A stretch of 64,000 nt of DNA from Callorhinchus milii (Eukaryota): assembly GCF_018977255.1 (NCBI RefSeq), contig NW_024704778.1, forward strand, positions 620,001 to 684,000, read 5' to 3'. Under the pieces are notes generated by a model. That model saw only the letters and a program-made list of their open reading frames with translations, did no database searches and was not told where the DNA came from. A program made the position numbers and the translations under genes. Positions 11,031-40,458 of the stretch are shown piece after piece (position 1 is the stretch's first letter; each line of letters begins with the position of its first letter).

Positions 11031-11834
11031 TGATGTCTTTCTGCAAATCTTATCCCCTCTTTCTGCTGATGAGCCGGGCCGGGCTGTGCTGCCATCAGCA
11101 GCGAGTGCCCCGGGATACTGCAGACCTTTCTGGCTCAGGAACCGGGACTAAAGACCGTCATAGAGGGGGGTCTCGATTGCCACGTTCGAGGAGACCCCGA
11201 TTACCCTCTCCCCACGCCCCAAGAGGACAGTCACTAGTTGGTCGTTTGGCACCCGACAAGTGTGGGTTTGAGCCTAACTCAGGGGACGGCAGGTATGAGT
11301 TTCTCAATGGACAACACGGCTCAGTGTGAGAGCTTTGCCACCATCTTGCTGTCAGCAGCTCAGACACATGGTCCGTCCCATTCGGCCATGGTTCCACCAG
11401 TTGGAGGGGTGCAGTTTAAGCAGAAGCTGCTGTTGTCTCCGCAGCCAAACCAGGTGGGTTCAAGCGCTGGACGTGTTTTCACAAACTCAGACTCGAGCCA
11501 ACGCCTTCCAGCAGCCACTGCCCGAAACCCCAGTTTCTTCACCAGCTGCAATATTATTAATATGATTGATTATCTGCCCAGTTTCTACCTCTTCCTCGTA
11601 GACCTTCGATCGTCTCTCAGATACACATCCTCGGCCCCACCAACCACATCTCAGCTTCCTCCCCTCCGCTGCCTCCAGAAGAGAATTCCATGCAAACCAG
11701 GTTTAGGATTGAGATAGCCAGAGAAAGATAACTAGTGACTGATGTGTGGCGTCCAGATTATCCATTGCTTCTCTCTCTCTCTCTCTCTCTCGGAGTGCAG
11801 TGTCCCTCAGTCACACTCTCTCTCTTTCTGTCAC

Positions 11835-12310
11835 AGGGGCTGTGGGGTGTGAGGGGAGGGGTCTAACCCCTGAGCTACAGGGGCTGTGGGGTGTGAGGGG
11901 AGGGGTCTAACCCCTGAGCTACAGGGGCTGTGGGGTGTGAGGGGAGGGGTCTAACCCCTGAGCTACAGGGGCTGTGGGGTGTGAGGGGAGGGGTCTAACC
12001 CCTGAGCTACAGGGGCTGTGGGGTGTGAGATGGGGTCTAACCCCTGAGCTACAGGGGCTGTGGGGTGTGAGGGGAGGGGTCTGACCCCTGAGCTACAGGG
12101 GCTGTGGGGTGCGAGGGAGGGGTCTAACCCCTGAGCTACAGGGGCTGTGGGGTGTGAGGGAGGGGTCTGACCCCTGAGCTACAGGGGCTGTGGGGTGGGA
12201 GGGGAGGGGTCTAACCCCTGAGCTACAGGGGCTGTGGGGTGCGAAGGGAGGGGTCTAACCCCTGAGCTACAGGGGCTGTGGGGTGTGAGGGAGGGGTCTA
12301 ACCCCTGAAC
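11835..12310 (-). repeat. ~43-bp minisatellite built from the SINE tRNA-like head
   Basis: Unit GGGGCTGTGGGGTGTGAGGGGAGGGGTCTAACCCCTGAGCTACA, about 11 copies; reverse complement contains TGTAGCTCAGGGGTTAGA. Confidence 0.9.
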
Positions 12311-12353
12311 TCAAGGCCTCCACAGAGTGTGGGGGCGCAGTCACACAAGGTGG

Positions 12354-12385
12354 TGCAGTGCGATAGCTGACCAGCAGGTGGCGCT
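12354..12385 (+). promoter_or_regulatory. CTCF binding site (core plus upstream motif)
   Basis: CCAGCAGGTGGCGC at 12371-12384 matches the CTCF core consensus; TGCAGTG at 12354-12360 lies at the upstream-motif position. Confidence 0.7.
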
Positions 12386-12454
12386 GTGTGTCTACACCTG
12401 GTTTCAATAGACAACAGCAACAACTCACATTTACGTTTCTATATTTATGTTTGT

Positions 12455-12990
12455 GCGCGGGGGGGGGCAGTGCGGGGGGGGGGGCAGTGCGGGGGGGGGC
12501 AGTGCGGGGGGGGGGCAGTGCGGGGGCAGTGGGGGGGGGGCAGTGCGGGGGGGGGGGGGGGGCAGTGCGGGGGGGGGGCAGTGCGGGGGGGGGGCAGTGC
12601 GGGGGGGGGGGCAGTGCGGGGGGCAGTGCGGGGGGGGGCGTGCGGGGGGGGGCAGTGCGGGGGGGGGGCAGTGCGGGGGGGCAGTGGGGGGGGGGGCAGT
12701 GCGGGGGGGCAGTGCGGGGGCGGGGGGGGGGGGTGCGGGGGGGCAGTGCGGGGGGGGGGGCAGTGCGGGGGGGGCAGTGCGGGGGGGGGCAGTGCGGTGG
12801 GGGGCAGTGCGGGGGGGGGGCAGTGCGGGGGGTGGGGGGCAGTGCGGGGGGTGGGGGGCAGTGCGGGGGGGGGGGCAGTGCGGGGGGGGGCAGTGCGGGG
12901 GGGGGGGCAGTGCGGGGGGGGGGGGGGGCAGTGCGGGGGGGGGGGGCAGTGCGGGGGCAGTGCGGGGGCAGTGCGGGGGGGGGGGGGGCG
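12455..12990. repeat. G-run minisatellite (CAGTGC-Gn)n, G-quadruplex-prone
   Basis: Dozens of CAGTGC units separated by runs of about 5-16 G. Confidence 0.9.
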
Positions 12991-13098
12991 GCCATGTCAG
13001 TCAGTGAGGGGAGGAGTTGTTTAATGAGGGTTTGAGCGGCTGTTCAGCGGCGCTGTGTGTGTGTGTGTGGGTCAGTGTCGGGGGGGGAGGGGTCAGTC

Positions 13099-13905
13099 AT
13101 GTCCAGTGACGAGGAGGAGAAGCGGCGGCGGGAGGAGGAGGAGGAGGACGAGGAGGCGGCGGCGGCGGCGGAGTCCGGGGCTGTACTCGAGCCCGAGGCT
13201 TTGGGGCCTAAACTCCAGCAGCTGCGGTTGGAGCCCGAACCCGCAGGAAAACCCGCGGCTTCGCGGCCTACACCGGAAAAGGCGGTCGGGCCCGCGGGCC
13301 GGAGGACACCGAGCGGCGGGAGGAGACCGGCAGGAAAGCCCGAGGCCTCGCGGGCCGCCCGGGGCCCGGGGCCGGAGCTGGACCCGGGGCCGGCGGGGCT
13401 CGGGGGGGAGGCGGCCGGGATCCCGCTGCTCCGCGAGGCCTCGGGGCCGCGCTCGGGACCGGCCGCCTGGGCCCGGCGGCTGCGGGAGGAGTACGCGGCG
13501 CTGATCCGCTACGTGGAGCTGAGCCGCGAGGCCGCGGGCGGGGCCTCGGGCCCGGGCGGCGGGTGGTTCCGGCTGGAGGCGAGCGCGGACGGGACGCGCT
13601 GGTCCGGGCGGTGCTGGGCCGTGCACCGGCTGCTCCGCTACGGCTTCCGGCTGCAGCTGACGGTACCCGCGGCCTATCCCGCCGCCGCCCCCGAGCCCGC
13701 GCTCCCGGGCCTGGACGGGAAGACGGCCAAAATGTACCGCGGCGGCCGCGTCTGCCTCTCGCGGCACTTCCAGCCGCTCTGGGCCCGGCACCAGCCCCGC
13801 CTCGGCCTCGCGCACCTCCTGGCCCTCGGCCTCGCGCCGTGGCTCGCCGTCGAGGTGCCCGAACTCGCCGACAAGGGCCTCATCGCCCCCGGGGACGAGG
13901 ACTGA
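13099..13905 (+). CDS. UFC1: Intronless UFM1-conjugating enzyme (UFC1-like) with ~100-aa N-terminal extension, 268 aa
   Basis: Single ORF; the C-terminal ~160 aa follow UFC1 throughout: IPLL...GPR...W..RLREEY.ALIRYVE, WFRLE...DGTRW.G.CW, YP..APE.ALP.LDGKTAKMYRGGRVCL..HF.PLWAR..PRLGLAHLLALGL.PWLAVEVP.L..KG.I. Catalytic Cys codon at 13753-13755; AATAAA at 15031. Confidence 0.9.
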   Translation: MSSDEEEKRRREEEEEDEEAAAAAESGAVLEPEALGPKLQQLRLEPEPAGKPAASRPTPEKAVGPAGRRTPSGGRRPAGKPEASRAARGPGPELDPGPAGLGGEAAGIPLLREASGPRSGPAAWARRLREEYAALIRYVELSREAAGGASGPGGGWFRLEASADGTRWSGRCWAVHRLLRYGFRLQLTVPAAYPAAAPEPALPGLDGKTAKMYRGGRVCLSRHFQPLWARHQPRLGLAHLLALGLAPWLAVEVPELADKGLIAPGDED

Positions 13906-14600
13906 GGGCGAACGGATCGATAATCGCCGATCACCTCCATCGACCGGGACTGAGGAGGGGGTGTGGGGGGTGGGGGGGGTTTGGGGGGTAATCGATATTC
14001 ACCCTCTGCTCAACCACTGATCGATACCCCGCAGTTAAATCATCGATGAGGACTGAGGCTGCGGATCAATATTCATCCCCTTCTCTATGACTGATCGATA
14101 CACCCAGAGGCTGATCAATACCCCCCACTCCTCACCCCCAGCGACAAGGACTGAGCCGGGCTGATCGATAGATACTGATCAATATTTCCCCCGCTATCTC
14201 CTCCTGATCACGGATCAATACTCCCCCCCCACCCTCCCTCTCTCGCCCTGATCACACGCAGCAGCAAGGACTGAGGGTGGGGGAGGGAGAGGCTGATCCA
14301 TATCCATCCCCTTCTATGCCCCCAATCAATCATCAATACTTTCCTCTGATCATTGATCAATACTCCCCTCAACCACTGATCAATACCTTGCTAGAAATTG
14401 ATTAATACTGACCCGGATCACTGATCAATACTCCCTTCCCCAAGAGGCTGATCACAGATCAATACCGGCAAACACTAATCAGTACCCCACCCCTCATCGC
14501 TGATCAATCCCCCGATCATCGATGCGGATGTGGGAGAGAGCTCCGGAGACTGATCAATACTCTGATCACTACAGCCCTTAGTTACTGATCACTGTCCCTG
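13894..14600 (+). repeat. Degenerate tandem repeat in UFC1-like 3' region, rich in ATC(A/G)AT
   Basis: Recurrent GGACTGAG and (C)TGATCAATAC / GATCGATA motifs. Confidence 0.7.
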
Positions 14601-14639
14601 GCAACAGTCTTGGTGGCTGTGGTACCAGTCCTGGTCTCC

Positions 14640-14945
14640 CCGGCGACCCCCCTCCCTGGCGACCCCCCTCCCTGGTGACCCCCCTCCCTGGCGACCCCCC
14701 CCTCCCTGGCGACCCCCCTCCCCGGTGACCCCCCTCCCCGGCGACCCCCCCCCTCCCTGGCGACCCCCCTCCCTGGCGACCCCCCTCCCTGGCGACCCCC
14801 CCTCCCTGGTGACCCCCCCTCCCTGGCGACCCCCCTCCCTGGCGACCCCCCTCCCTGGCGACCCCCCTCCCTGGCGACCCCCCTCCCCTGGCGACCCCCC
14901 CTCCCCGGCGACCCCCCCCTCCCTGGCGACCCCCCTCCCTGGCAG
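14640..14945. repeat. ~16-19-bp minisatellite (CCCTGGCGACCCCCCT)n
   Basis: Direct tandem repeat. Confidence 0.9.
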
Positions 14946-15179
14946 CCCCCACCCCCGGCAGTAAACCATGTCTCTGTGGTATCGATCGCTGTGTCTGTGT
15001 CTCTGTGGAAAGACTCAATATTTCACCTTCAATAAACGATGAACTGCCAACAGTGAATGGCCTCCCTGTTCCTCCTGTTTGTGTCCCCCCCCCCCCCCCA
15101 CCCCACCCCCCCCCCCCACCCCCTCCCCCCCATGTCTCTGTGGCCTCCTTGTTCTTCCCGTATGTCAAGGAGTTTGCAT

Positions 15180-15450
15180 AGTCAGGATGTTATGAACTCG
15201 TGTTTGAGGGTCTCGGGGGCCTGTGATATGAGACAGCGGTGGAGACGGGCGATGCTGGGGAGGTGGGGGAAGGCAGAGCGGGTCATGGACCAGATGTGGG
15301 GTAGAAAGGATGGCTGAGGGTCAAACAAGACCCCAAGGTTCGGGACTGGCTTAGCGCGGTGGAGTGAGCGGCCATGGATGGTGATGCTGTCAGCGCCTGA
15401 GGTGAGGAGGCGCTGGCGGGAGCCTCGGTCTTGTTGACGTTGACTTTAGG
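15180..15450 (-). mobile_element. L2-type LINE ORF2 fragment
   Basis: Near-identical to part of the L2 fragment at 56930-57100 (GACCCCAAGGTTC.GGACTGGCTTAGC, GATGGTGATGCTGTCAGCGCCTGAGG). Confidence 0.7.
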
Positions 15451-15699
15451 TAAGTACCAGGAACAAGCTACGTGGTGGGCAACACAGGTCAGTGTGAGAG
15501 CACTGCCACCTCCTTGCCCTGTGTAGCTAAGTGGCATTTGGTTTCAACTGGGTAGACTCCAGCAGTTACCCCAACACTGGGCTCTTGCCAACCTGCGCCT
15601 AATACTCTCCGGAATTAGGTAGACAGGAGGCGCCCCTCCAAGGAGAGAGAGAGAGAGAGAGCGCATTCCATTCCAAACAGCCAAATATCCGATGGTTTA

Positions 15700-15990
15700 T
15701 CATAATAATCCTTGCATTTGATGCAGCGCCTTATGTTGTTGAGACGTCTCAAAAGAGCTTCAAGGACACACAGTAAAGTGTAGTGACTATTTTGTGGGCG
15801 AAACGCGGCAGCCAATTGCACACAGCGAAGTCCCCACAAACAGTCGTGGATTGAGTTACCAATTTTATCTTTTTTTGGAGGGATCATTAACCCTGGAAAG
15901 CGATCCGTCAATCGACTAACAATCCTACTTACTGCTGCTAAGTTAACTTGCCCGGGAATTGAACCCATGTCCTCGCTTGTTCTCGCTTTC
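15700..15990 (-). mobile_element. tRNA-derived SINE (antisense)
   Basis: ATAATCCTTGCATTTGAT tail and family body in reverse. Confidence 0.8.
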
Positions 15991-16879
15991 CACGTGTTTA
16001 ACTGACTTAACCGTATGTAAACGTGTCGAATGAGCACGTGTTAGGGCAGCTGTACAAGTGTCAATGGCTTGTTTACAAAGTTCTGTTTCAAACTTAACCA
16101 ATTATTGTGTAATCGTGCACTTGGGTTAAGTGGAATGTTCGAAAGGTTCATATATGGATCATCCAGAACTCTGCAGCTCGTGTCCTCTCCTGCTCCGTGA
16201 CCCCATGATTATACACATGAGAAAGAGGGGAGCGAGAATGTGGGGGGGGGGAGGTGGGGAGGGGAGCGAAGGTGAGGGGGTTTTATTGTTTCTAAGTAGA
16301 AAAAACCATAGCAACACATTAGCGTTACACAAGGAGCAGGAATGTTTTAATCTTTAACGTTATCCCTAACCAAACAAAACTGATCATTAAAGTCCTGTAA
16401 ATATGGATCACAGGTCAGAGGGAGCCTGGCTCGGTCACTGGTGCTTTTACCTCCAACTCGGAGACAGTTTGTGGGTTCAACCCACCCCCCACGTCAGCAG
16501 CTCCAGCTCACAGTCCGGGCTGACAACAGCGACTTGTACTTATAATAATAATAATCCTTGTATTCAATACGATGACTTCTCATGTCGGAACTACGTCTCA
16601 GGATACACTGTGACACAAAGGAGACTGTATTCCGTGGGTGAAACGCGGCAGCCGACTGCACACATCAGTGTCCGCAAACAGCCACATGTCCCATAAACAG
16701 AACTGGATGGAGCCCGGTCCTCTCGCTTGCGAGGCGGGAGCTCCAAATACTAAAGGACTTCAAATTGCATCATATCATGTTGACCCAGACAGTCTCTCTC
16801 AGAGGCTGATAACAGTCACGGACAGTTATAAGTCCTCGCGATAACGTTAGCTCATGATTGTCTCTTGAGAGGATTTGGA

Positions 16880-17210
16880 CAGACATCGATGGACCTGGAT
16901 TTCTCACCCAGTGCTGGTGAAACTTGAACCTTTGACTGTCAGTGAGAACCACCCTCTGCCCCACCAACCCCAACTCCCCGTCCTGTCCTCTGCTGCCTCC
17001 AGGAACATTCAAGACAATTCCATTAATGCTAAAGTTTAGCTGAGATTCCGAGAGAAAAGTAACTGTGTGACGGCGAGATTAGCCATTGCTTAAATCCAAC
17101 AATTCTCCGAAAAGCCAAATACACACACACAACGTCTCGGCCAATAAGTCTCTGTAACCTGCTCCGTCACTCAGTCAACACCGACTCTCAGCCTCTCTCT
17201 CTCTCTCTCT
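16880..17210 (+). promoter_or_regulatory. Duplicated ~330-bp putative promoter block A (upstream of OAT exon 1A)
   Basis: Nearly identical to 19332-19659; contains CCAAT box (GGCCAATAAG); promoter role inferred from position. Confidence 0.6.
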
Positions 17211-17299
17211 CTCTCATTCACCGACTCTCAGTCCACAACAGTCTCTCGGTCATCAACAGCCTCGGAGTTAGTAAGTCTCTCTCTCTCTCGGTAACTGTC

Positions 17300-18130
17300 T
17301 CTGTCAGTAACTATTTCTTTAAGTAACAATCTCTCTCTCAGTAACAATCTCAGTAACAGGGTCTCTCAATAAGAATATCTCTCAGTAACAATCTCAGTAA
17401 CAATCTCAGTAATAATCTCTCTCAGGAACAATGTATCTCAGTAACAATCTCATTAACAATGTCCCTCAGTAACAATGTCTCTCAGTAACAATCTCTCAGT
17501 AACAATCTCTCTCAGTAACAATGTCTCAGTAACAATGTCTCAGTAACAATCTCTCTCAGTAACAATCTCTCTCAGTAACAATCTCTCAGTAACAATCTCT
17601 CAGTAACAATGTCTCTCAGTAACAATCTCTCCCAGTAACAATGTCTCTCAGTGACAATGTCTCTCAGTGACAATGTCTCTCAGTAACAGTGTCTCTCAGT
17701 AACAATGTCTCTCAGTAACAATGTCTCTCAGTAACAGTGTCTCTCAGTAACAGTGTCTCTCAGTAACAATCTCTCAGTAACAATGTCTCTCAGTAACAAT
17801 CTCTCCCAGTAACAACGTCTCAGTAACAATGTCTCTCAGTAACAGTGTCTCTCAGTAACAGTGTCTCTCAGTAACAGTGTCTCTCAGTAACAATGTCTCT
17901 CAGTAACAATCTCTCTCAGTAAGTGTCCCTCAGTAACAATGTCTCTCAGTAACAATGTCTCTCAGTAACAGTGTCTCTCAGTAACAATCTCTCAGTAACA
18001 ATGTCTCTCAGTAACAATCTCTCAGTAACAATGTCTCTCAGTAACAATGTCTCCCAGTAACAGTGTCTCTCAGTAACAATGTCTCTCAGTAACTATCTCA
18101 CTCAGTAACAGTGTCTCTCAGTAACAATCT
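17300..18130. repeat. ~14-16-bp minisatellite (CAGTAACAATGTCTCT)n
   Basis: Direct tandem repeat of ~830 bp; second copy at ~29720-30580. Confidence 0.92.
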
Positions 18131-18177
18131 CACTGATGCTCTGTTCTGTTCTGCCGCTGACGCAGAGGTTTTCCACG

Positions 18178-18591
18178 ATGGGATTTACTGACCTGCTGGA
18201 GATGGTGGGGAGCACTGGAAGGTTCCAGATGGTTCACGTCACGTTGCTGGCGCTGCCGGTGTTAATGATGGCCAGTCACAACCTGCTCCAGAACTTCGTG
18301 GCTGCCGTTCCTGATCACCGCTGCCGTATCCGTGCGGACGCCCTCGGCAACGCTTCCCGGCAAAGTCCCGGGAACGTGACGGGCGAAGTGCCGGCCGAGG
18401 AGCTGCTCCTGCCGGTGTTCATCCCCCTGGACAGGGAGGGCCGCCCGGAGAGGTGCCGGCTGTTTGCTGAGCCTCAGTGGCAATTCCTGGATCCCAACCG
18501 CACCCACGAGGACGGCAGCTCCACCACACGGCCGTGTACGAATGGATGGCTGTACAGCCACGGGGACGTCACCAGCACCATCATCAGCGAG
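18178..18591 (+). CDS. Alternative first coding exon 1A of SLC22/OAT paralogue 2
   Basis: 414-bp intact exon MGFTDLLEMVGSTGRFQ...STIISE with phase-0 GT donor; no exon 2 before exon 1B. Confidence 0.8.
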
Positions 18592-18709
18592 GTCTGTGCG
18601 TGTCCGTGTATGTATCTGCGTGTGTCTGTCTGTGTCACCACCACCATCATCATCACCGAAGTCTGTGTGTGTGTGTGTCTATGTGGCAGCCACCATCGTC
18701 ACCAAGGTA

Positions 18710-19150
18710 GGCGTGTCTGAGTCAGAAAGTTGTGGATTCAAGCCCCCACACCTGGACGTGGAAACACACAGCCTAAGCTGATGCTCTAATGCTGGGGGAG
18801 GGGGGTGCATTGTCAGATCTACTGTCCTTCGGATGAGATGTTAGACCCACTCCCTTGGCCGACTGTTCAAGTGGACACTGAAGATCTTCTGCGGCGTTAT
18901 TCGAAAAGAGAATTGAGTTTCTCTCTCTTTCTCTCTCTCTCTCCCAGTGTCTGCCCAACAATCTCCCAAATAAAATTGCTCATTCACTCCACAACTGTGT
19001 GTGGGGACGCTGCTGTGCACAATCGGCTGCCGCGTTTCGTCCACAAAATACAGTCACTACACTTCACTGTATATTCTGCAAAGTGCTTTGAGACGTCTCG
19101 AAGATGTGATGAGGCGCCGGGTCAAATGCAAGGATTATTATTGCTACTAT
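18710..19150 (+). mobile_element. Deu-domain-type SINE
   Basis: GCATTGTCAGA...GTCCTTCGGATGAGATGTTA core resembling the Deu domain, followed by the shared L2-type tail; antisense relatives at ~20690-21010 and ~27480-27870. Confidence 0.65.
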
Positions 19151-19331
19151 TACTATTGTTGGCTTGTAGGTACTTGTGTGTGTGTGTGTGTGTGTGTGTG
19201 TGAGCCTGGCTCAGTTATTAGTAAAGAAACCTTTCACTTCTAAGTCAGGATGTTACAGATATGTTGACCTGCACACAATGATAAAGTGTCCGCTAGTTAA
19301 CAATATCTAGCGATGTTTAACCTGAAGGAAT

Positions 19332-19659
19332 CAGACATCGATGGACCTGGATTTCTCACCCAGTGCTGGTGAAACTTGAACCTTTGACTGTCAGTGAGAA
19401 CCACCCTCAGCCCCACCAACCCCAACTCCCCGTCCTGTCCTCTGCTGCCTCCAGGAACATTCAAGACAATTCCATTAATGCTAAAGTTTAGCTGAGATTC
19501 CGAGAGAAAAGTAACTGTGTGACGGCGAGATTAGCCATTGCTTAAATCCAACAATTCTCTGAAAAGCCAAATACACACACACAACGTCTCGGCCAATAAG
19601 TCTCTGTAACCTGCTCCGTCACTCAGTCAACACCGACTCTCAGCCTCTCTCTCTCTCTC
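19332..19659 (+). promoter_or_regulatory. Duplicated ~330-bp putative promoter block B (upstream of OAT exon 1B)
   Basis: Nearly identical to 16880-17210; ends ~190 bp before ATG 19849. Confidence 0.6.
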
Positions 19660-19848
19660 TGTCTCTCTCAGCGACTGAGTTAGTCTCTCTCACTCACATG
19701 CTCTCTCTCTCACACTCAGTCCTTCTCTATCAGTCTCACACACACAGACACACAGACAAGTACACACACACACACACACAGACGCAGACACACACATTCT
19801 CTCTCAGCGTCTCTCAGTCTGTAGCAGCTGAAGCTGAGTGACAGATCG

Positions 19849-27270
<7,422 letters not shown>

Positions 27271-28001
27271 CCCTATGTGACCTCTCTATTTCACACTCTG
27301 AGCTCTGTCCCCCCGTGACCTCTCTCTCTCTATCTCTCTCTCACTCAAAGCTGCCTGGTCACATTTCACAGCTCGACACACAAATACCAATCGCACTTTC
27401 TATCCCAAATTAATAAATCACTGAGTATCTAAACATTAATATCACTGTTTATTATTAATAAAAAATCTATGTATTTGACACAGAGCCGTAACGGGTTCTT
27501 GAGACAAACTCAAAGCACTTCACAGAATATATTGTAAAGTGTAGTGACTGTATTTGGAGGTAGGTACGACAGCACAATGTGTACACAGCAGTTTCCCACA
27601 AATACCTATGGAGTGAGCGACAAATTTTATTTGGGGGATTATTGACACGGGGACGAGAGAGAGACAGAGAGGGAGAGAAACTCCCTTCTCTATTCCAATA
27701 GTGCCGCAGGAGATTTTTAATGTCCACCTGAACATGCAGGTGGAAGCTCGTTTTAACGTCTCATCTGACGGACGGTGTCTCTGACAAAGCAACACCGTCC
27801 AGCACTGCATTGGATCGTCAGCTTCAACTGTGATTCCAAGTCTTGACATGGGGACTTGAAAATAGAATAACTCACACAAACACACAAAAGGAAATCATTG
27901 ATTTGTTGTCAGTTTCAATAGATATTTCCACACCCGAGGCCAGGCTGATCTTGCTGTTCCACACAATGAGCAGAAACGGGTCTTTCAGCCCAGATGTGAC
28001 G

Positions 28002-28148
28002 TCAGAATCCTTTCTCCATCAGCCACGATTTCAGCTCGGAATCAAAGTAACCTTTAATGCGAATGTTCATCGTCACTTCATTGACCTGAACCTGAGGTGG
28101 TTTCCCTGTCATTGTTGTGAGGAACTCAGTGATGTCTTTTTCTAGCTC
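28002..28148 (-). pseudogene. MRPL49: Orphan duplicate of MRPL49 last exon, cut off by the gap; probably assembly redundancy
   Basis: [10 protein letters not shown]...WLMEKGF* identical to 40459-40605; upstream exons absent before the N gap. Confidence 0.7.
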
Positions 28149-28441
28149 CTGATCAATAATAATATAATAACAGTAATAATAGTAACAATAATATAATAAC
28201 AGTAATAATAATAATATAACAGTAATAATAACAATAGAATAACAGTAATAACAATAATAATAACAATAATATAACAGTAATAATAACAATAATAATATAA
28301 CAATAATAATAACAATAATAATATAACAATAATAATAAACAATAGAAATGGTAATAATAACAGCAATGATAATAATCCTTGCATTTGATACAGCGCCTTA
28401 TCATGTTGTCAAGACGTCTCAAAGTGCTTCACAGAATATAT

Positions 28442-28471: not shown

Positions 28472-30623
28472 TTATATATTCCACTGCGTTCTGCTGAGTA
28501 TCGTTTCGTAGAGAATATGTCATGCCGCGCTCTAGAAGCGCATGTTCGAAAGTTCATATATGGATCATCCAGAACTCTGCAGCTCGTGTCCTCTCCTGCT
28601 CCGTGACCCCATGATTATACACATGAGAAAGAGGGGAGCGAGAATGTGGGGGGGGGGGAGGTGGGGGAGGGGAGCGAAGGTGAGGGGGTTTTATTGTTTC
28701 TAAGTAGAAAAAACCATAGCAACACATTAGCGTTACACAAGGAGCAGGAATGTTTTAATCTTTAACGTTATCCCTAACCAAACAAAACTGATCATTAAAG
28801 TCCTGTAAATATGGATCACAGGTCAGAAGGAGCCTGGCTCGGTCACTGGTGCTTTTACCTCCAACTCGGAGACAGTTTGTGGGTTCAACCCACCCCCCAC
28901 GTCAGCAGCTCTCCAGCTCACAGTCCGGGCTGACAACAGCGACTTGTACTTATAATAATAATAATCCTTGTATTCAATATGGTGACTTCTCATGTCGGAA
29001 CGACGTCTCAGAACGCTTCACAGGATACACTGTGACACAAAGGAGACTGTATTCCGTGGGTGAAACGCGGCAGCCGACTGCACACATCAGTGTCCGCAAA
29101 CAGCCACATGTCCCATAAACAGAACTGGATGGAGCCCGGTCCTCTCGCTTGCGAGGCGGGAGCTCCAAATACTAAAGGACTTCAAATTGCATCATATCAT
29201 GTTGACCCAGACAGTCTCTCTCAGAGGCTGATAACAGTCACAGACAGTTATAAGTCCTCGCGATAACGTTAGCTCATGATTGTCTCTTGAGAGGATTTGG
29301 ACAGACATCGATGGACCTGGATTTCTCACCCAGTGCTGGTGAAACTTGAACCTTTGACTGTCAGTGAGAACCACCCTCTGCCCCACCAACCCCAACTCCC
29401 CGTCCTGTCCTCTGCTGCCTCCAGGAACATTCAAGACAATTCCATTAATGCTAAAGTTTAGCTGAGATTCCGAGAGAAAAGTAACTGTGTGACGGCGAGA
29501 TTAGCCATTGCTTAAATCCAACAATTCTCCGAAAAGCCAAATACACACACACACGTCTCGGCCAATAAGTCTCTGTAACCTGCTCCGTCACTCAGTCAAC
29601 ACCGAACTCTCAGCTCTCTCTCTCCTCTCTTCTCTCATTCACCGACTCTCAGTCCACAACAGTCTCTCGGTCATCAACAGCCTCGGAGTTAGTAAAGTCT
29701 CTCTCTCTCTCGGTAACTGTCTCTGTCAGTAAACTATTTCTTTAAGTAACAATCTCTCTCTCAGTAACAATCTCAGTAACAGGGTCTCTCAATAAGAATA
29801 TCTCTCAGTACAATCTAACAATCTCCAGTAACAATCTCAGTAACATCTCAGTATAACTCTCTCAGGAACAATGTATCTCAGTAACATCTCATTAACAATG
29901 TCCCTCAGTAACAATGTCTCTCAGTAACAATCTCTCAGTAACAATCTCTCTCAGTAACAATGTCTCAGTAACAATCTCAGTAACAATCTCTCTCAGTAAC
30001 AATCTCTCAGTAACAATCTTAGTAACAATCTCTCAGTAACAATGTCTCTCAGTAACAATCTCTCCCAGTAACAATGTCTCTCAGTGACAATGTCTCTCAG
30101 TGACAATGTCTCTCAGTAACAGTGTCTCTCAGTAACAATGTCTCCTCCAGTACAATGTCCTCTCAGTAACAGTGTCCTCTCCAGTAACAGTCTCTCATAA
30201 CAATCTCTCAGTAACAATGTCTCTCCAGTAACAATCTCTCCAGTAACAATCGTCTCAGTAACAATGTCTCTCAGTAACAGTGTCTCTCAGTAACAAGTGT
30301 CTCTCAGTAAACAGTGGTCTCTCCTCAGTAACAATGTCTCTCAGTAACAATCTCTCTCAGTAAGTGTCCCTCAGTAACAATGTCTCTCAGTAACAATGTC
30401 TCTCAGTAACAATGTCTCTCAGTAACAATCTCTCCAGTAACAATGTCTCTCCAGTAACAATCTCTCAGTAACAATGTCTCTCAGTAACATGTCTCCCAGT
30501 AACAGTGTGTCTCTCAGTAACAATGTCTCTCAGTAACTATCTCACTCCAGTAACAGTGTCTCTCAGTAACAATCTCAACTGATGCTCTGTTCTGTTCTGC
30601 CGCTGACGCAGAGGTTTTCCACG

Positions 30624-31037
30624 ATGGGATTTACTGACCTGCTGGAGATGGTGGGGAGCACTGGAAGGTTCCAGATGGTTCACGTCACGTTGCTGGCGCT
30701 GCCGGTGTTAATGATGGCCAGTCACAACCTGCTCCAGAACTTCGTGGCTGCCGTTCCTGATCACCGCGCCGTATCCGTGCGGACGCCCCTCGGCAACGCT
30801 TCCCGGCAAAGTCCCGGGAACGTGACGGGCGAAGTGCCGGCCGAGGAGCTGCTCCTGCCGGTGTTCATCCCCCTGGACAGGGAGGGCCGCCCGGAGAGGT
30901 GCCGGCTGTTTGCTGAGCCTCAGTGGCAATTCCTGGATCCCAACCGCACCCACGAGGACGGCAGCTCCACCACACGGCCGTGTACGAATGGATGGCTGTA
31001 CAGCCACGGGGACGTCACCAGCACCATCATCAGCGAG
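30624..31037 (+). CDS. Alternative first exon 1A, duplicate copy (with compensating -1/+1 indels)
   Basis: Same as 18178-18591 except [11 protein letters not shown] reads HRAVSVRTPLG at ~30767-30790. Confidence 0.7.
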
Positions 31038-32295
31038 GTCTGTGCGTGTCCGTGTATGTATCTGCGTGTGTCTGTCTGTGTCACCACCACCATCATCATC
31101 ACCGAAGTCTGTGTGTGTGTGTGTCTATGTGGCAGCCACCATCGTCACCAAGGTAGGCGTGTCTGAGTCCAGAAAGTTGTGGATTCAAGCCCCCACACCT
31201 GGACGTGGAAACACACAGCCTAAGCTGATGCTCTAATGCTGGGGGAGGGGGGTGCATTGTCAGATCTACTGTCCTTCGGATGAGATGTTAGACCCACTCC
31301 CTTGGCCGACTGTTCAAGTGGACACTGAAGATCTTCTGCGGCGTTATTCGAAAAGAGAATTGAGTTTCTCTCTCTTTCTCTCTCTCTCTCCCAGTGTCTG
31401 CCCAACAATCTCCCAAATAAAATTGCTCATTCACTCCACAACTGTGTGTGGGGACGCTGCTGTGCACAATCGGCTGCCGCGTTTCGTCCACAAAATACAG
31501 TCACTACACTTCACTGTATATTCTGCAAAGTGCTTTGAGACGTCTCGAAGATGTGATGAGGCGCCGGGTCAAATGCAAGGATTATTATTGCTACTATTAC
31601 TATTGTTGGCTTGTAGGTACTTGTGTGTGTGTGTGTGTGTGTGTGTGTGAGCCTGGCTCAGTTATTAGTAAAGAAACCTTTCACTTCTAAGTCAGGATGT
31701 TACAGATATGTTGACCTGCACACAATGATAAGGTGTCCGCTAGTTAACAATATCTAGCGATGTTTAACCTGAAGGAATCCGACATCGATGGACCTGGATT
31801 TCTCACCCAGTGCTGGTGAAACTTGAACCTTTGACTGTCAGTGAGAACCACCCTCTGCCCCACCAACCCCAACTCCCCGTCCTGTCCTCTGCTGCCTCCA
31901 GGAACATTCAAGACAATTCCATTAATGCTAAAGTTTAGCTGAGATTCCGAGAGAAAAGTAACTGTGTGACGGCGAGATTAGCCATTGCTTAAATCCAACA
32001 ATTCTCTGAAAAGCCAAATACACACACACAACGTCTCGGCCAATAAGTCTCTGTAACCTGCTCCGTCACTCAGTCAACACCGACTCTCAGCCTCTCTCTC
32101 TCTCTCTGTCTCTCTCAGCGACTGAGTTAGTCTCTCTCACTCACATGCTCTCTCTCTCACACTCAGTCCTTCTCTATCAGTCTCACACACACAGACACAC
32201 AGACAAGTACACACACACACACACACAGACGCAGACACACACATTCTCTCTCAGCGTCTCTCAGTCTGTAGCAGCTGAAGCTGAGTGACAGATCG

Positions 32296-35200
32296 ATGGG
32301 GTTTGATGATCTGCTGGACGATGTTGGAGGTTTTGGGAAGTTCCAAATCACATACACTTTGTTGTCATTATTGCCGGCTTTGACCAGCATGAGTCATGTC
32401 CTGCTCCAGAACTTTGTGGCTGTCGTTCCTGATCACCGCTGCCGTATCCGTGCGGACGCCCTCGGCAACGCTTCCCTGCAAAGTCCCGGGAACGTGACGG
32501 GCAAAGTGCTGGCCGAGGAGCTGCTCCTGCCGGTGTTCATCCCCTTGGACAGGGAGGGCCGCCCAGAGAGGTGCCGGCTGTTTGCTGAGCCTCAGTGGCA
32601 ATTCCTGGATCCCAACCGCACCCACGGGGACGGCAGCTCCACCACACGGCCGTGTACAGACGGATGGCTGTACAGCCACGGGGACGTCACCAGCAGCATC
32701 ATCAGCGAGGTGTGTGTGTGTCTGTGTGAGTGTGTGTCACAGTCACCACCATCATTACCGAGGTAGGAGAGAGCATCTATGTTCAAGGTCTTCATGAGTT
32801 CCCTGCAGATCAGTGGCTCACATCACAAGCGAGAAGATCTGGGTTCAATTCCCGGGCATGTCAGCGCCAAACATTGGGCAAGTTTCCTTACTCCACACAC
32901 CCACACCACTCGCAATAAGTAGGAACCCACTTGTTAGTCAATTGACAGATCGCTTTCCTGGTGTAATAATCTCTTCACAATAATTGATAGTTTGGTCACT
33001 CAATCCACGACTGTTTGAGGCATCTCAAAGGCACCATATCAAATACAAGGATTATTAATAGTAGTAGTTTAAGGCTGAGGACCCAGTTTATACTGTTATC
33101 ACAGGATACACTGCGAGGTGTAGTGACTGTGTGATTGCAATTTCCCACAAACAGCCATGAAGTGAGTGACCAATTTGTATCTGGGGAATGTCGGCCAGGA
33201 CACTGGGAGAGAGAGAGAGAGAAACTCCCTTCTCTTTTCAAGCAGTCGCCGTGGGAGATCTTTAACAACCACCCAACTCGGCAGACGGGGAAAGTTTAAA
33301 GTTTAAAGCCTCACCCGAAGGACGGCGTCTCTGACATCGCGACACCACCCGCCCCAGCACGGGGTTGGAGCCTGGGCTTAGACTGTGATTCCTGGCGTGG
33401 AGGCTCAAACCTTCTGACCAGGAGGCGAGAGTGTGAGTGACTGAGCCAGGCTGACACACAAAGTCTTTGTTATCACATAGAGAACATGTACAAGTGATCA
33501 GATTTGACAGGTCGGGTGGTTCCAGCTGGACAAGCAGCGGGAAAGCTTGGCCAGACAGACAGCACTCTCTGACCCTCTCTCTCTCGATGGCCAAGCTGTG
33601 TGTGGATTTAGCTGGTTAGACCCCAGCAGTTACCCCCAATGCACAACCTGCACCTAATGCTCTCCGGAATTAAGTAAGCAGGGGGGCGTCCTATCTCTGG
33701 CATTTCTATGTGTAGGTGGGATGCATGGAATTTTCAGTTGGGTTTGGAGTCTCTTTAACCACAGTGCTGGGTTTCCACGTGTGTCAGACACCCGGCTGGT
33801 CAGTGATGGGTTTCCGTGTGTGTGTGTGTGTCAGACACCCGGCCGGGCAAAAGAAAAGCGATCAGGTGATTGTTCCTCACCCAGTGTGTAAGACTGTTGT
33901 GTTGTCAGTGACTCTGAGCCGTTCTCGCCCCGACAGTGGGACCTGGTGTGTGATCAGCGATCTCTGAAACAGATGTCACAATCTATCTACATGAGCGGAG
34001 TATTGGTGGGAGCCATCGTAATGGGCCAAATGTCTGACAGGTGAGCACCAGGCAAGTGCTCTAATCACGACACTCCGCAATGTGACCGTGTAAACAGGGG
34101 AAGGCGAGGTGGGAACCCTGGCCTCTCTCGCTGACGTGTTGTCGTGTTTCTCCGCAGGTTTGGACGCCGCCCTATCCTGCTCTGGTCTCACTTACAGCTG
34201 GCGATCACCGGAACCTGTGGCTCCTTCTCCTCGAGCTTCCCCCTGTTCTGTTTCTGGAGGTTCATGTGCGGAGTGGCTGTGTCTGGACTCATCCTCAACT
34301 CGTTCTCTCTCAGTGAGTAAAACTCGCCAATCGTTTACCTGGTTTGTGGTGTTAATCATAATAATAACCTTTACGTTTGACACAGTGCCTCATCACGTCT
34401 TTTGAGACATCTCAAAGCGTTTCGCAGAATTCATGACAATTGGACAATCCCTCCAAAAATAACAATAATAATGTGGTCACTTCAATCCACGACTGTTTGT
34501 GGGGACGCTGCTGTGCGCAATTGGCTGCCGCGTTTCGCCCACAAAATACACAGTCAATTACACTGTAACCTGTGAAGCGCTTTGAGTTGTCTCGAAGATG
34601 ATAATATAATAATCTTTGCGTTTGATATAGCGCTTTTCACGTCTTCGAGACGTCTCAAAGCGCTTCACAGAATATACTGCAAAGTGAATTGACCGTATAT
34701 TTGTGGGCGAAATGATAAGGCGCTGTAACAAATGCAAGGATTATTATTATTATAATTATTATTAATAACGCTTTCCTGATTTCCTGAACTCCCGACAGCG
34801 GTTGAATGGATTCCAACTAAAGTGCGGACGTCTGTGGCAACGCTGAATAATTACAGTTACACGATTGGGCAGTTCCTCCTGGTTGGCTTGGCGTACGCAC
34901 TAAGGAATTGGCGTTGGCTACAGTTCGCAGTGTCCGCCCCCTTCTTCATCTACTTCCTATACTCCTGGTAATGTCAGCCATTAACACTGCCTCTCACCGC
35001 AGGTCGCCAAGACCCTGATCTGTGGTTTCATTACTTCCCGGCTTGACTACACCAACTGCCTGCTCACTGGACTTCCCAACTCTTCCCTCCATAAGTTGCA
35101 GATCATTCAGAACCTCTGCAGCTCGTGTCCTCTCCTGCATCAGGCTCCGGGAGACTATCAACCCCGTTCTTGCCCGGCTTCACTGGCTCCCCATCCCACA

Positions 35201-38200
35201 GAGAATTAAGTACAAAACCCTTGTTCTTATCTTCAAGAGCCTTCCAAGGTCTTGCTCCCCCCACCTCTCTGACCTAATCATCCCAGATCAGCCTGTCTGC
35301 TCCCTCTGCTTGGCGGACACCAGCCTGTTTCAGGTCCCCGCACTTCCCACCCCACCATTGGTGGTCGGGCATTCAGCATCTCTGCCCCCAAACTCTATCC
35401 CGCAATCCCTTGCATTACCCCCTCTCTTGCCACCTTTAGGTCCTATCTGAATACCCTCTTCTTCGATGGTGCCTTCGGCCACCCTCCTACCCCCAACCGC
35501 CTGCCCCCACCCTCCTGCTCCCACCTTCCTATCTCCCCACCCACTTGCCCCCACCCTCCTACCCCCACCCTTCATGCCCTCCACCCCCCCGGGTACATTT
35601 TTCTGATGTAAAAGGAGTTGTGTAGATGTCTGTTGTTGTTGTTGTTGGGGGAGAGCAGCCTAATCTCACTCAGCAATAACTAAAACTCACGGACACCCAT
35701 CATGGAGCTTCAGGGTCTCCAAATCCAACTGAGAATTCCATAAAACCGGCGATGGTGGAATGGAGAGCGCGAGAGACAAGCAGGAGGCTGGAGCCAGCTG
35801 AACGGGAGCAGTGGGTAGTGGGTAGGGGAGTAAGGAGGTGGGAGAGGTAGGGAGGTGTCCTGTGTCTGTGCCTTCGTTGTTAACCCCTCGATCCCTGGCA
35901 GGTGGTTCCCGGAGTCGGCACGATGGCTGATAATGAACGACAAAGCCGATGTGGCCGTGAACCAGCTGAAGCGAGTGGCCAGGCTGAATGGCAGGGAGGC
36001 CGAGGGCAGCAAACTCACAGCCGCGGTGAGTCGGTGGGTGGGTGAGTGGGTGGGTCGGTCAGTCACGTTTCGCATTCCTCTCCTGCTTCCAGCATCTAGC
36101 ATAGTGATCAGAGCATAATTAAAGCGAGAGGACCAAGGTTCAATTCCCAGTAATAATCCTACCAAAATTAATAAATAATAATAATGTGTTCACTCAAACC
36201 GCAACTGGAATTGTGGGCAAATTTGTTAACCAGCAGTAAGTAGGAACCTGGTTGTTAGTTGATCGACGGACCGCTTTCAAATAAATGTTGATCACACAAT
36301 GTCCTTCCAGGCAGGGCGAAAGCTTCAGGGGCTGAGAGCTTCAGGGGCTGCGAACTTCAGGGGCTGAGAGCTTCAGGGGTTATTATAGTGATGTAAATCT
36401 ATCTGTATTATCTGCTTCAATTGCCACTTGTGGGAGTGAGTTCTGCATAGTGCTGCCCTCTGTCTGAAGAAGTTCCTTCTAAATTCTCTATTTAGAGAAT
36501 TCAATCCTCAATCCTCCAGTCACTGTCTTATACTCGTGTTTCTCCGTGAAGTCTCGGTCACCAATAGGAACCACCTATTTGAGCTGTAAAACCGTGTTGT
36601 ATTGGTTTCACTTGTGGTATTGCAATCAGTGCTGTAGCTCAGGTGGAGTCCTGTAGCTCAGTGGTTAGAGCACTCGCTTTGCAAGCGGAGACCTGGGTTC
36701 AATTCCATGCGAAACCTTGGCAAGTTTCCTTACTCCACACAGAGCCTAATAATAATCCCTCCAAAACAAAACAATAATAAATTGGTCATTTTTAATCCAC
36801 GACTGTTTGTGGGACACTGCTGTGCGCAATTGGCTGCCGTGTTTCGCCTATAAATATTCTGTCAATTCACTTTACAGCATATTCTGTGAAGTACTTTGAG
36901 ACGTCGAGAAGATGTGAAAAGCGCTATATCAAATGCAAGGATTATTCTTATTCTTATAACTGTTCGTGGGACACTGCTGTGTGCAATTGGCTGGTGTGTT
37001 TTGCCCACAAAAAATACACAGTAAATTTACACTTTACAGTGAAGCACTTTGAGATGTCTCAATGACACTATATCAAATGCAAGCATTATTATTATTATTA
37101 TATGATGGTTGTATTTCCCCACAGATTGTTAAGTCACATATGGAAAAAGAACTTTCAAAATGCAAGACTGGTTACAGTGTGACCGACCTGTTCCACACCC
37201 CCGTCATGCGAAGGACGGCCTGTTGCACGATGGTAGTTTGGTAAGTTGTTGGCCTGAGAACATAAGAATTACTAGACAAAAGAAGACAAGTTCCATCCAG
37301 TTTGCCGTCCACTATCCTGGCAGTCACGAGACATGTCGTGTCCCAAACTATAATAATTATAATAATAATCCTTGCATTTAATACAGCACCTTATCACATC
37401 GTTGACATGTCTCAAAGCGCTTCACAGAATATACTGTAAAGTGTAGTGGCAGTGTTTGCACAGCAGTGTCCCACACACAGTCGAGCATTGCGTGACCAAC
37501 ATTTATTTGAAGGGTTTATTATCTCCGGAAAGCGATCCGCCGATCGACTAAACCAGGTTCCTACTTACTGCTGGTAAACAGAGGCGTGTGTGTGCAGTAA
37601 GGAAACTTGCTTAAGGTTTCGCCCTGACCCGCCTGGGAATCAAACCCGGGTCCTCTCACTAATCACTATACTACAGGACTCCATTGTTTGGGACACATTT
37701 CAAGCAAAGGCTAGGATAGTGGAGATGGTCCTTGGTCTTCTTTCATCTTACGTTCTGTTCTCCACCCAGGTTCTCAGTGAGTTTCGCCTATTATGGATTA
37801 TCCATAGACCTGCAAGGTTTCGGGGTGAACATTTATCTGATTCAGATGATCTTCGCTGCTGTTGATATTCCAGCTAAATTGGTTGGTGTCGCTACCATGA
37901 GTCTGATTGGGCGACGGTTTACTCAGGGCTCGTCTCTCATCTTGGCCGGCACCATTATCATCATCAACATCTTCATTCCTCAAGGTAGGGGGTCACGCTC
38001 CCTCCCTCCTCCCTCCATCTTCACTCCCTCCTCCCTTCATACTCCCTCCACCCATCCATCCTCCTTCCCTCCACCCACCCTCTCCCTTCATTCTCCCTCC
38101 CTCCATCCACTACCTTCTCTTCTTCCTCACAAGAGGCTGAGGGTGTTCAAATTGGCTGCTGCGTTTTGCCCACAAAATATACATTCACTACACTTTACAG

Positions 38201-39727
38201 TGTATCCTGTGAAGCGCTTTGAAACATCTCAAAGATGTGATAATGCGCTGGGTCAAAAGTCAGGATTATTATTACTGTTGTTATTGTTATTATTGCCAGT
38301 TATGCTCATTGTCCTTGTGCAGTCCTGTAGCTCAGTGGTTAGAGCACTCGTCTTGCAAGCGAGATACCTGGATTCAATTCCGGGCAGAGGGCGAAACCTT
38401 GGGCAAGTTTCCTTACTCCACACGCCTGATAATAATCACTCCAACAAAACAATAATAAATTGGTCATTTTTAATCCACGACCGTTCGTGGAACACTGCTG
38501 TGCGCAATTGGCTGCCGCGTTTCGCCCACAAATATTCAGTCAATTCACTTTACAGCATATTCTGTGAAGCTCTTTGAGACATCGAGAAGACGTGAAAAAA
38601 AGCGCTATATCAAATGCAAGGATTATTATTATTATATTATTATTATTGTCCATTTCTCCTCCAGAAATGAGCAATTTACGCACCTCATTCGCTGCGATTG
38701 GGAAAGGATGTCTTGCAGCTAGTTTCAGCTGCGCCTATTTACACGCAGGAGAACTGTACCCTACTGTGGTCAGGTGTGTAGCCGTGTCCCTATCACACAC
38801 TAACTCCTGATAACAAGACACATGGCGCTGTCGCACACTAACTCCTGATAATAAGACCCCATCTTAAGACAGGGTTGAAGACATGATAAAGTGCTTTACC
38901 AAATGCCAATATTATTATTGTTATTATTGTTTGACTAGTGGGTTAATAGATTGACTGACTGATTGATTGATTGATTATATTGGGCACGGCTGCAGGCAGA
39001 CAGGGATGGGGCTGGTCAGTTCGATGGCCAGGATTGGATCCATGGTGGCCCCGCTGGTGAAGATGACTGGTGATTACGTTTCCTTTTTGCCGATGGCAAT
39101 ATACGGTGGAGTTGCCGTCCTCGCTGGGATTGTGGCCTTTTTCCTCCGGGAAACGTTGAACATTCCTTTGCCAGAATCGATTGAGGGGGTGGAGAGCAGG
39201 TATGTGAGACATAGAACAGGAGGAGGCCAATCAGCCCCTTGAGCCTGTTCCACCATTCTATAAGATCATGGCTGATCTGTACCTCAACTCCAATTACCCG
39301 CCTTTGCCCCGTATTCCTTGACAACCTGACCTAACAAACAAATCCCAACGAAATTCCTTCAAAAAAATGTAAAACATTAATCTGTACAATGTAGATGGAT
39401 CCAGCCATAATCCAAAGGCTTCCATCCCAACAATCTATCTCTGGGATTTCCAAGCGTAGATGGGATGAATGGAAATCTCAGTTGGGATTGGAGACTCTTG
39501 AAGCATGGAGATTGGTTTCCGTGTGTGTTAGACCCCCGGGTGGCCAAATAAACTGCTCCTGACATTGCTGACCGCTGAACATGAGTTGCCATACCATAAC
39601 GAGGTATCAATCTTGTGATTTCCTCTCCAGCTGGAAAAAAAAGATGCAAAAGGAAAGCGAGCCCAAGAATGAGGAGATCTCTCTGCGGGAAACACCTCCC
39701 CCCTCGCTGATGACACAGACTATCTGA
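32296..39727 (+). CDS. SLC22/OAT paralogue 2, copy 2
   Basis: Exons 32296-32709, 33937-34040, 34158-34312, 34799-34967, 35902-36025, 37125-37240, 37770-37984, 38665-38773, 38996-39199, 39631-39727; essentially identical to copy 1. Confidence 0.9.
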
Positions 39728-40458
39728 CCCTATGTGACCTCTCTATTTCACACTCTGAGCTCTGTCCCCCGTGACCTCTCTCTCTCTATCTCTCTCTCAC
39801 TCAAAGCTGCCTGGTCACATTTCACAGCTCGACACACAAATACCAATCGCACTTTCTATCCCAAATTAATAAATCACTGAGTATCTAAACATTAATATCA
39901 CTGTTTATTATTAATAAAAAATCTATGTATTTGACACAGAGCCGTAACGGGTTCTTGAGACAAACTCAAAGCACTTCACAGAATATATTGTAAAGTGTAG
40001 TGACTGTATTTGGAGGTAGGTACGACAGCACAATGTGTACACAGCAGTTTCCCACAAATACCTATGGAGTGAGCGACAAATTTTATTTGGGGGATTATTG
40101 ACACGGGGACGAGAGAGAGACAGAGAGGGAGAGAAACTCCCTTCTCTATTCCAATAGTGCCGCAGGAGATTTTTAATGTCCACCTGAACATGCAGGTGGA
40201 AGCTCGTTTTAACGTCTCATCTGACGGACGGTGTCTCTGACAAAGCAACACCGTCCAGCACTGCATTGGATCGTCAGCTTCAACTGTGATTCCAAGTCTT
40301 GACATGGGGACTTGAAAATAGAATAACTCACACAAACACACAAAAGGAAATCATTGATTTTGTTGTCAGTTTCAATAGATATTTCCACACCCGAGGCCAG
40401 GCTGATCTTGCTGTTCCACACAATGAGCAGAAACGGGTCTTTCAGCCCAGATGTGACG

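Follow-up and report, generated by a model that had tools for sequence, protein, structure and literature searches.

Human UFC1, the E2 of the UFM1 pathway (structures 2Z6O, 7NW1, 7OVC, 8C0D), is the closest described system to the gene analyzed here. The functional roles assigned below to conserved UFC1 residues come from excerpts of PMC6022668, PMC10702826, PMC8481289, and PMC12032130, the first of which describes the UFM1 pathway as essential in mammals and the third of which credits the N-terminal helix, alpha0, with giving the enzyme stability. According to the available portion of PMC9627666, deletion of alpha0 raises lysine discharge by human UFC1 and abolishes inhibition by CDK5RAP3, and an excerpt of PMC10937380 reports that D50A impairs both aminolysis and ribosome UFMylation.

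The window, the whole 64,000-nucleotide stretch of Callorhinchus milii DNA that was analyzed, spans positions 620001-684000 of a 702-kb contig (C37). It holds an intronless UFC1 gene whose product, hereafter shark UFC1, resembles the engineered delta-N form of the human enzyme (PMC9627666, in part) in lacking alpha0 next to the core. In shark UFC1, however, the loss occurs in nature, with a charged helix tethered ~80 residues further upstream and changes at other residues, all of this being read from sequence. UBE2E-type E2s, mentioned in the same excerpt, carry a disordered inhibitory N-terminal extension, and shark UFC1 likewise has a disordered front, although these are different E2 families and the likeness is one of analogy, with no sequence similarity claimed. 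Orphan retrogenes such as amphioxus SYCP1 (PMC5803294, in part) offer a genomic parallel, since there too a single-exon copy sits at a new locus and no multi-exon parent was found; for shark UFC1, loss of the parent is read from one assembly. The absence of introns, the intact catalytic and E1/E3-binding residues, the selective constraint, the GC-directed substitution, and the want of a second copy together lead us to regard 13099-13905 as, on balance, probably a working and sole UFM1-conjugating E2, a processed copy that has taken the place of a multi-exon parent now lost.

The open reading frame and its UFC1 core

A stop-free frame of 268 codons runs from 13099 to 13905 on the forward strand, as a first-pass annotation made from the sequence had reported, and it matches the Pfam UFC1 family (PF08694) over residues 107-262 (E 9e-59; 198 bits against a cut-off of 25). 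The match covers positions 7-154 of the 155 in the model, which places the product in the family. The features of the frame and its core are as follows.

13099..13905, + strand: single-exon UFC1 open reading frame, 268 aa (open frame and Pfam match)
13414..13884, + strand: UFC1 core, residues 106-262 (Pfam and alignment to human UFC1)
within 13414..13884, + strand: core landmark R118, human R23 (alignment)
within 13414..13884, + strand: core pocket L128/Y132/L135/I136/V139/R143/F157/R158/L159 (alignment)
within 13414..13884, + strand: core landmarks TAK 209-211, Y213, C219, F224, W248, E252 (alignment)

The solved human protein aligns to residues 106-263 with two gaps only, at ~55-61% identity. 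The DGKTAKMYRGG and GLAHL/PWLAVE stretches and the catalytic cysteine, residue 219, all lie where the first-pass annotation had placed them. Cys219 is the equivalent of human C116 and stands ten residues past the TAK motif (T209-A210-K211), which takes the place of HPN. By alignment, the equivalents of human R23, Y36, I40, R55, Y110, F121, W145, and E149 are retained, as are those of L32, Y36, L39, I40, V43, F54, R55, and L56 in the pocket shared by UBA5 and UFL1; V29 and K47 of that pocket are replaced by Ala and Arg, and six of the seven hydrophobic residues that contact UBA5 are kept. Compared with canonical UFC1, shark UFC1 thus shares the Cys, the TAK motif, and the R23, Y110, F121, W145, and E149 equivalents but differs in carrying Arg for D119 and Gln for K122, in its single exon, ~105-residue front, and extreme GC content, in lacking D50 and D52 (replaced by a loop with seven additional residues), and in lacking alpha0 before the I-P motif. 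As judged by alignment, the product is UFC1 by domain and catalytic features and a variant by architecture; it was filed as a variant, not as canonical, because alpha0 does not directly precede the core.

Human UFC1 is a six-exon gene, and the continuous frame found here lacks all of the parental introns, in agreement with the earlier description of the gene as intronless. The protein is already an automatic entry in NCBI and UniRef; no publication on it was found within CC-licensed PMC and bioRxiv.

The N-terminal extension, the loop, and their predicted consequences

Ahead of the core, residues 1-~105 are of low complexity. Together with the altered loop inside the core, they comprise three features.

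13099..13176, + strand: predicted charged N-terminal helix, residues ~3-26, with an E/R tract and poly-Ala (pLDDT 85-94)
13177..13413, + strand: predicted disordered P/G/A/R linker, residues ~27-105 (structure prediction)
13518..13563, + strand: loop replaced by a local copy of 13425-13470 (repeat comparison and alignment)

The AlphaFold models of the whole protein were poor (pTM 0.36), and nothing but the predicted disorder and N-terminal helix was taken from them; a fold search with the first model reached a TM of about 0.45, and Atlas's own model of the protein matched UFC1 clusters at a TM of 0.80-0.89 by target. That ~100 residues replace the normal N-terminal helix, as had been proposed, held up, since alpha0 is absent at its usual place: the N-terminal family profile aligns to the frame only from model position 11, leaving alpha0 unmatched, whereas in 246 of 250 homologues a sequence pattern of our own finds alpha0 immediately ahead of the core. 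The duplicated PAGKP(A/E)ASR unit that had been noted is likewise real, with 24 of 28 nucleotides shared between 13239-13266 and 13326-13353, a likeness reached by none of 500 codon shuffles. Two candidate origins of the extension, a duplicated UFC1 N-terminus and MSSDEEEKRR as a split alpha0 (suggested by a MAFFT alignment), were rejected as not significant: 1290 of 1442 scored shuffles reached the profile score, and pairwise p was 0.67-0.77. A database variant (P0003) has the same sequence from about residue 24 onward, but its first residues lie in another frame and it has no Met; the read-contig comparison passed over 13106-13183 as repeat. The reading frame given here for the first ~25 codons is therefore that of this assembly only.

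An insertion in the core had also been reported. It is real, and corrects to a local copy of LLREASGPRSGPAAW DNA: 13518-13563 matches 13425-13470, 93 nt upstream, at 34 of 46 nucleotides (0/500 shuffles), with a net gain of seven residues, and a further one-residue insertion follows GPR. The resulting loop is Gly-rich and has lost the residues corresponding to human D50 and D52, sites conserved in 87% and 97% of the family, respectively. Judging from the alignment, the canonical contact of Asp50 to UFBP1 Arg265 would thus lack its residue in shark UFC1.

The kept pocket and active site, the lost alpha0, and the lost D50 together predict an E2 that is chargeable and looser than its human counterpart. 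UBA5 is predicted to use the retained pocket to charge Cys219. With alpha0 gone from its usual place, UFM1 would be discharged faster and CDK5RAP3 would restrain the enzyme less; lacking Asp50, the enzyme would in turn be activated less by UFBP1, which would offset the loss of alpha0 in part. The tethered helix at residues 3-26, itself a modelled feature, may or may not substitute for alpha0. The altered regulation that the first-pass annotation had suggested is therefore a reasonable prediction.

GC-directed change and selective constraint

The UFC1 core has GC contents of 0.80, 0.60, and 0.97 at the first, second, and third codon positions, the last of which compares with 0.74-0.76 in three neighboring exons and 0.93 in one. 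Relative to catshark UFC1, 63 of 154 aligned sites differ; 32 of these differences lead into Gly, Ala, Arg, or Pro and four lead out, whereas none leads into Phe, Tyr, Met, Ile, Asn, or Lys and 30 lead out. A GC3 of 97% and the 32 to 4 imbalance bear out the shift to GC-rich (Ala/Gly/Pro/Arg) codons that had been read from the sequence. Biased gene conversion is the presumed cause of this push.

The change is not evenly spread. At sites where catshark and loach agree, shark UFC1 keeps 61 of 71 highly conserved residues as against 25 of 60 others (p 1e-7), and with Gly, Ala, Arg, Pro, and Trp sites excluded it still keeps 30 of 40 as against 17 of 51 (p 1e-4). This site-specific constraint points to purifying selection and agrees with the proposal that the copy was retained under selection. 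Three of 11 ancestral lysines remain, two of them invariant (the K105 and K108 equivalents), and the codon for the latter is AAA, one of five A/T-ending codons among 163. In the available text of PMC12032130, human UFC1 with K108R is inactive.

Eleven of 73 near-invariant sites are nonetheless altered, including the D50 and D52 equivalents, as compared to a maximum of seven and a median of one in 103 homologues, which is surprising in a sole essential gene. In a tree of 40 rows the shark UFC1 branch measured 2.09 against a median of 0.048; its biased composition drew it to the GC-rich sequence of hake, so its placement is uninformative. Besides P0003, no close full-length relative came up in three word searches (near, shorter, longer) or in a HMMER scan of 1.84 billion representatives. 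Among the best 120, 120, 5, and 150 matches, respectively, there was no orthologue from which to take a dN/dS or a date.

Another reading is that of a decaying processed pseudogene, its frame open by chance. In neutral GC-biased simulations, which ignored indels, the frame stayed open in 25% of cases at this divergence, making an open frame weak evidence when taken singly. The losses of alpha0 and D50 and the other-frame start of P0003 also fit decay. Against these stand the site-specific constraint (p 1e-7), the strong codon-position pattern, the undecayed CpG, two insertions that both keep the frame, and the lack of another UFC1 to do the job. Neither a disrupted frame nor neutral change, the marks of a processed pseudogene, was found, and we consider decay the least probable of the readings.

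The sequence around the frame contributes four further features.

13000..13999, no strand: CpG island over the whole open reading frame (CpG observed/expected 1.01; window median 0.55)
12455..12990, no strand: G-rich minisatellite upstream, possible promoter region (sequence and repeat inspection)
12994..13035, + strand: 13-codon upstream open reading frame in the same frame, its TGA 63 nt before the main ATG (sequence)
13906..15036, + strand: likely 3' UTR with a putative 3' end; first AATAAA at 15031

Undepleted CpG over 13000-13999 is what would be expected of an unmethylated island. A read contig covers 12985-13069, the region of the upstream open reading frame, which would lie inside the transcript only if transcription starts further upstream and could then dampen translation. 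The 3' flank consists of degenerate GATC-rich repeats to 14620, followed by a 16-nt minisatellite (14620-14990). Between 13879 and 14620 GATC occurs 24 times in 715 nt, where the window as a whole has about 3 per kb, and there are four copies of a motif that resembles the last 28 nt of the frame. A sequence at 12370-12385, between an SLC22 gene and the G-rich repeat, resembles a CTCF site, and no Rfam matches were found in 11500-17500.

Of 15 listed sequencing runs, 14 contain the stretch; none is on record as RNA, and ten of them, from three studies, are guessed to be RNA. Contigs from three guessed-RNA runs cover most of the frame, at 13233-13948 (X1), at 13184-13403 and 13440-13965 (X3), and in parts (X6), and reach the 3' flank to about 14590-14630 without joints. 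These contigs show no splicing, and their cover would be at most a weak sign of transcription, given that the RNA status of the runs is a guess. Over 13590-13919, at 80% likeness, each of X1, X3, and X11 has one contig and X6 has no cover; a single contig per run was not counted against a parent, since contigs show presence, not absence.

The parent search and the presumed old UFC1 neighborhood

The first-pass annotation favored a candidate second UFMylation E2, and this was not supported: four whole-assembly searches, with the core itself, catshark UFC1, PF08694, and a degenerate motif allowing one mismatch, found no other UFC1. Two weak extra matches (E 0.2 and 4.3) contained stops and were not UFC1. 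UFM1 is present in the assembly, and the same search detected two of its exons, of 19-24 aa, at ~25 bits. Exon-sized pieces of catshark UFC1, cut at presumed exon boundaries, all scored 31-57 bits against the family profile (6 of 6). Since short exons are detectable, a canonical multi-exon UFC1 in the assembly should have been found. Nor did a profile scan of the fetched loci, 165 in all and totalling 1.14 Mb, show another UFC1 exon. The alternative that the annotation had offered, a sole UFC1 after intron loss and relocation, is the better reading, as only one UFC1 is present, and the observation named beforehand as speaking against a second E2, that the genome has no other UFC1, was made for this assembly. 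The sole status is provisional: with no intact SDHC found, genes may be missing from the assembly.

In mammals UFC1 lies beside USP21, as three fused gene models attest, and in lizard UFC1 and NDUFS2 are on contigs of the same size. The amniote neighborhood also takes in PFDN2, NIT1, PPOX, and SDHC. Shark UFC1 is flanked instead by a Spin-doc zinc-finger gene and an Img2/MRPL49 gene, both identified by Pfam, which supports the claim of relocation relative to the amniote arrangement; nearby translations read as probable SLC22, VPS51, ZFPL1, and CDCA5, genes of human 11q13. Four of the five genes of the amniote neighborhood that were tested are in the assembly, on four different contigs. PFDN2 (one spliced exon identified; C18 at 147 kb) is near FAM110, UBX, and syntaphilin genes. 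An NIT1-like gene, identified from one exon, its last (C27 at 111 kb), is near citrate synthase and CNPY-like genes; we presume NIT1 rather than NIT2 because its best PDB match was NitFhit. PPOX, with several exons, is near a ubinuclein gene (C31 3.517-3.520 Mb). None of these three 200-kb neighborhoods holds a UFC1 exon. That PFDN2, the NIT1-like gene, and PPOX keep introns in three unrelated settings suggests either that a block was taken apart or that the ancestral order was different, and the spread of neighbors over four contigs argues against one missing block that held them all.

SDHC, an essential gene of the same amniote block, was not found intact. The only copies seen, at C3 56.53 Mb and C30 1.37-1.41 Mb, are a processed pseudogene and two decayed partial copies that contain introns and are inverted relative to each other; none of the four matches of a motif search, which gave three in a control, was SDHC. 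The searches may have missed the gene, or the assembly may be gapped. This gives the main support to the view that shark UFC1 is a functional second copy, a freer and possibly tissue-restricted E2, with the multi-exon UFC1 in an unassembled GC-rich segment. Genes on GC-rich microchromosomes are often missed in assemblies (compare PMC9021737, on chicken). The many near-invariant changes (11/73) and the long branch would also fit relaxed constraint. One-directional GC change explains the rate without a second gene, however, the separately assembled neighbors give no sign of one missing block, and no canonical holocephalan UFC1 was seen among 120 of 339 database matches or among the listed cluster members (at most 15 per cluster), a point of little weight. 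We consider a second copy possible and rather unlikely.

NDUFS2, from the same old neighborhood, is present as three tandem, intact, intronless copies in a 12-14 kb unit (C1 38.56-38.59 Mb), and the encoded protein is identical to named Callorhinchus milii database records. The 25 assembly matches include no multi-exon NDUFS2 and many processed fragments. Four of five processed copies compared run into the same repeat-bearing 3' flank, with ends within about 30 nt. NDUFS2 is likely a second parent-replacing retrogene. This bears on whether the sole gene instead moved as DNA with its introns and then lost them all in place by recombination with cDNA, as the apparent relocation of PFDN2, NIT1, and PPOX with introns might suggest. 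No poly(A) remnant or target-site duplication was seen at the UFC1 locus, whose flanks are minisatellites and where the event looks old. The simultaneous absence of all introns and new flanks on both sides are more simply explained by one retroposition, and NDUFS2 and its many processed copies attest to retroposition in this genome; a move as DNA is thus very unlikely.

On the preferred reading, that of a sole retrogene, UFC1 mRNA would first have been copied into the SLC22/MRPL49/VPS51 block, and the parent would have been lost as its old neighborhood broke up. With the gene lying wholly in a CpG island and GC-rich DNA, biased gene conversion would then have pushed its GC content up as selection held the active site, and slippage and local duplication would have built the disordered front and the loop. 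A bolder extension, which we hold to be doubtful, is that the whole of UFMylation in chimaeras runs on a rewired retrogene E2. Having shed the inhibitory alpha0 and the aspartate that contacts UFBP1, this enzyme would be under weaker control by CDK5RAP3 and the E3, with the tethered helix as a new brake, and its gene would belong to a set of housekeeping genes (with NDUFS2, PFDN2, NIT1, and PPOX) that left, one at a time, a small chromosome segment as it was taken apart. Nearly all UFC1 proteins examined carry alpha0, which in vitro restrains the human enzyme; if shark UFC1 is the sole copy, it would be a natural test of whether an animal can live without this helix, of how far GC-biased substitution erodes an essential enzyme, and of the co-evolution of UFL1, UFBP1, and CDK5RAP3.

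Elsewhere in the window, 16135-28441 and 28542-40896 form a 12.4-kb tandem duplication at 99.0% identity, with SLC22 genes and the last MRPL49 exon, which is either recent or an assembly artefact. In each unit, one SLC22 first exon is immediately preceded by an extra one (18109-18720 and 30570-31166), to which no further exons could be assigned. Outside the window, long frames at C30 1.379-1.382 Mb, amid TRIM, zinc-finger, and GPCR clusters, may resemble stonustoxin-type fish proteins.
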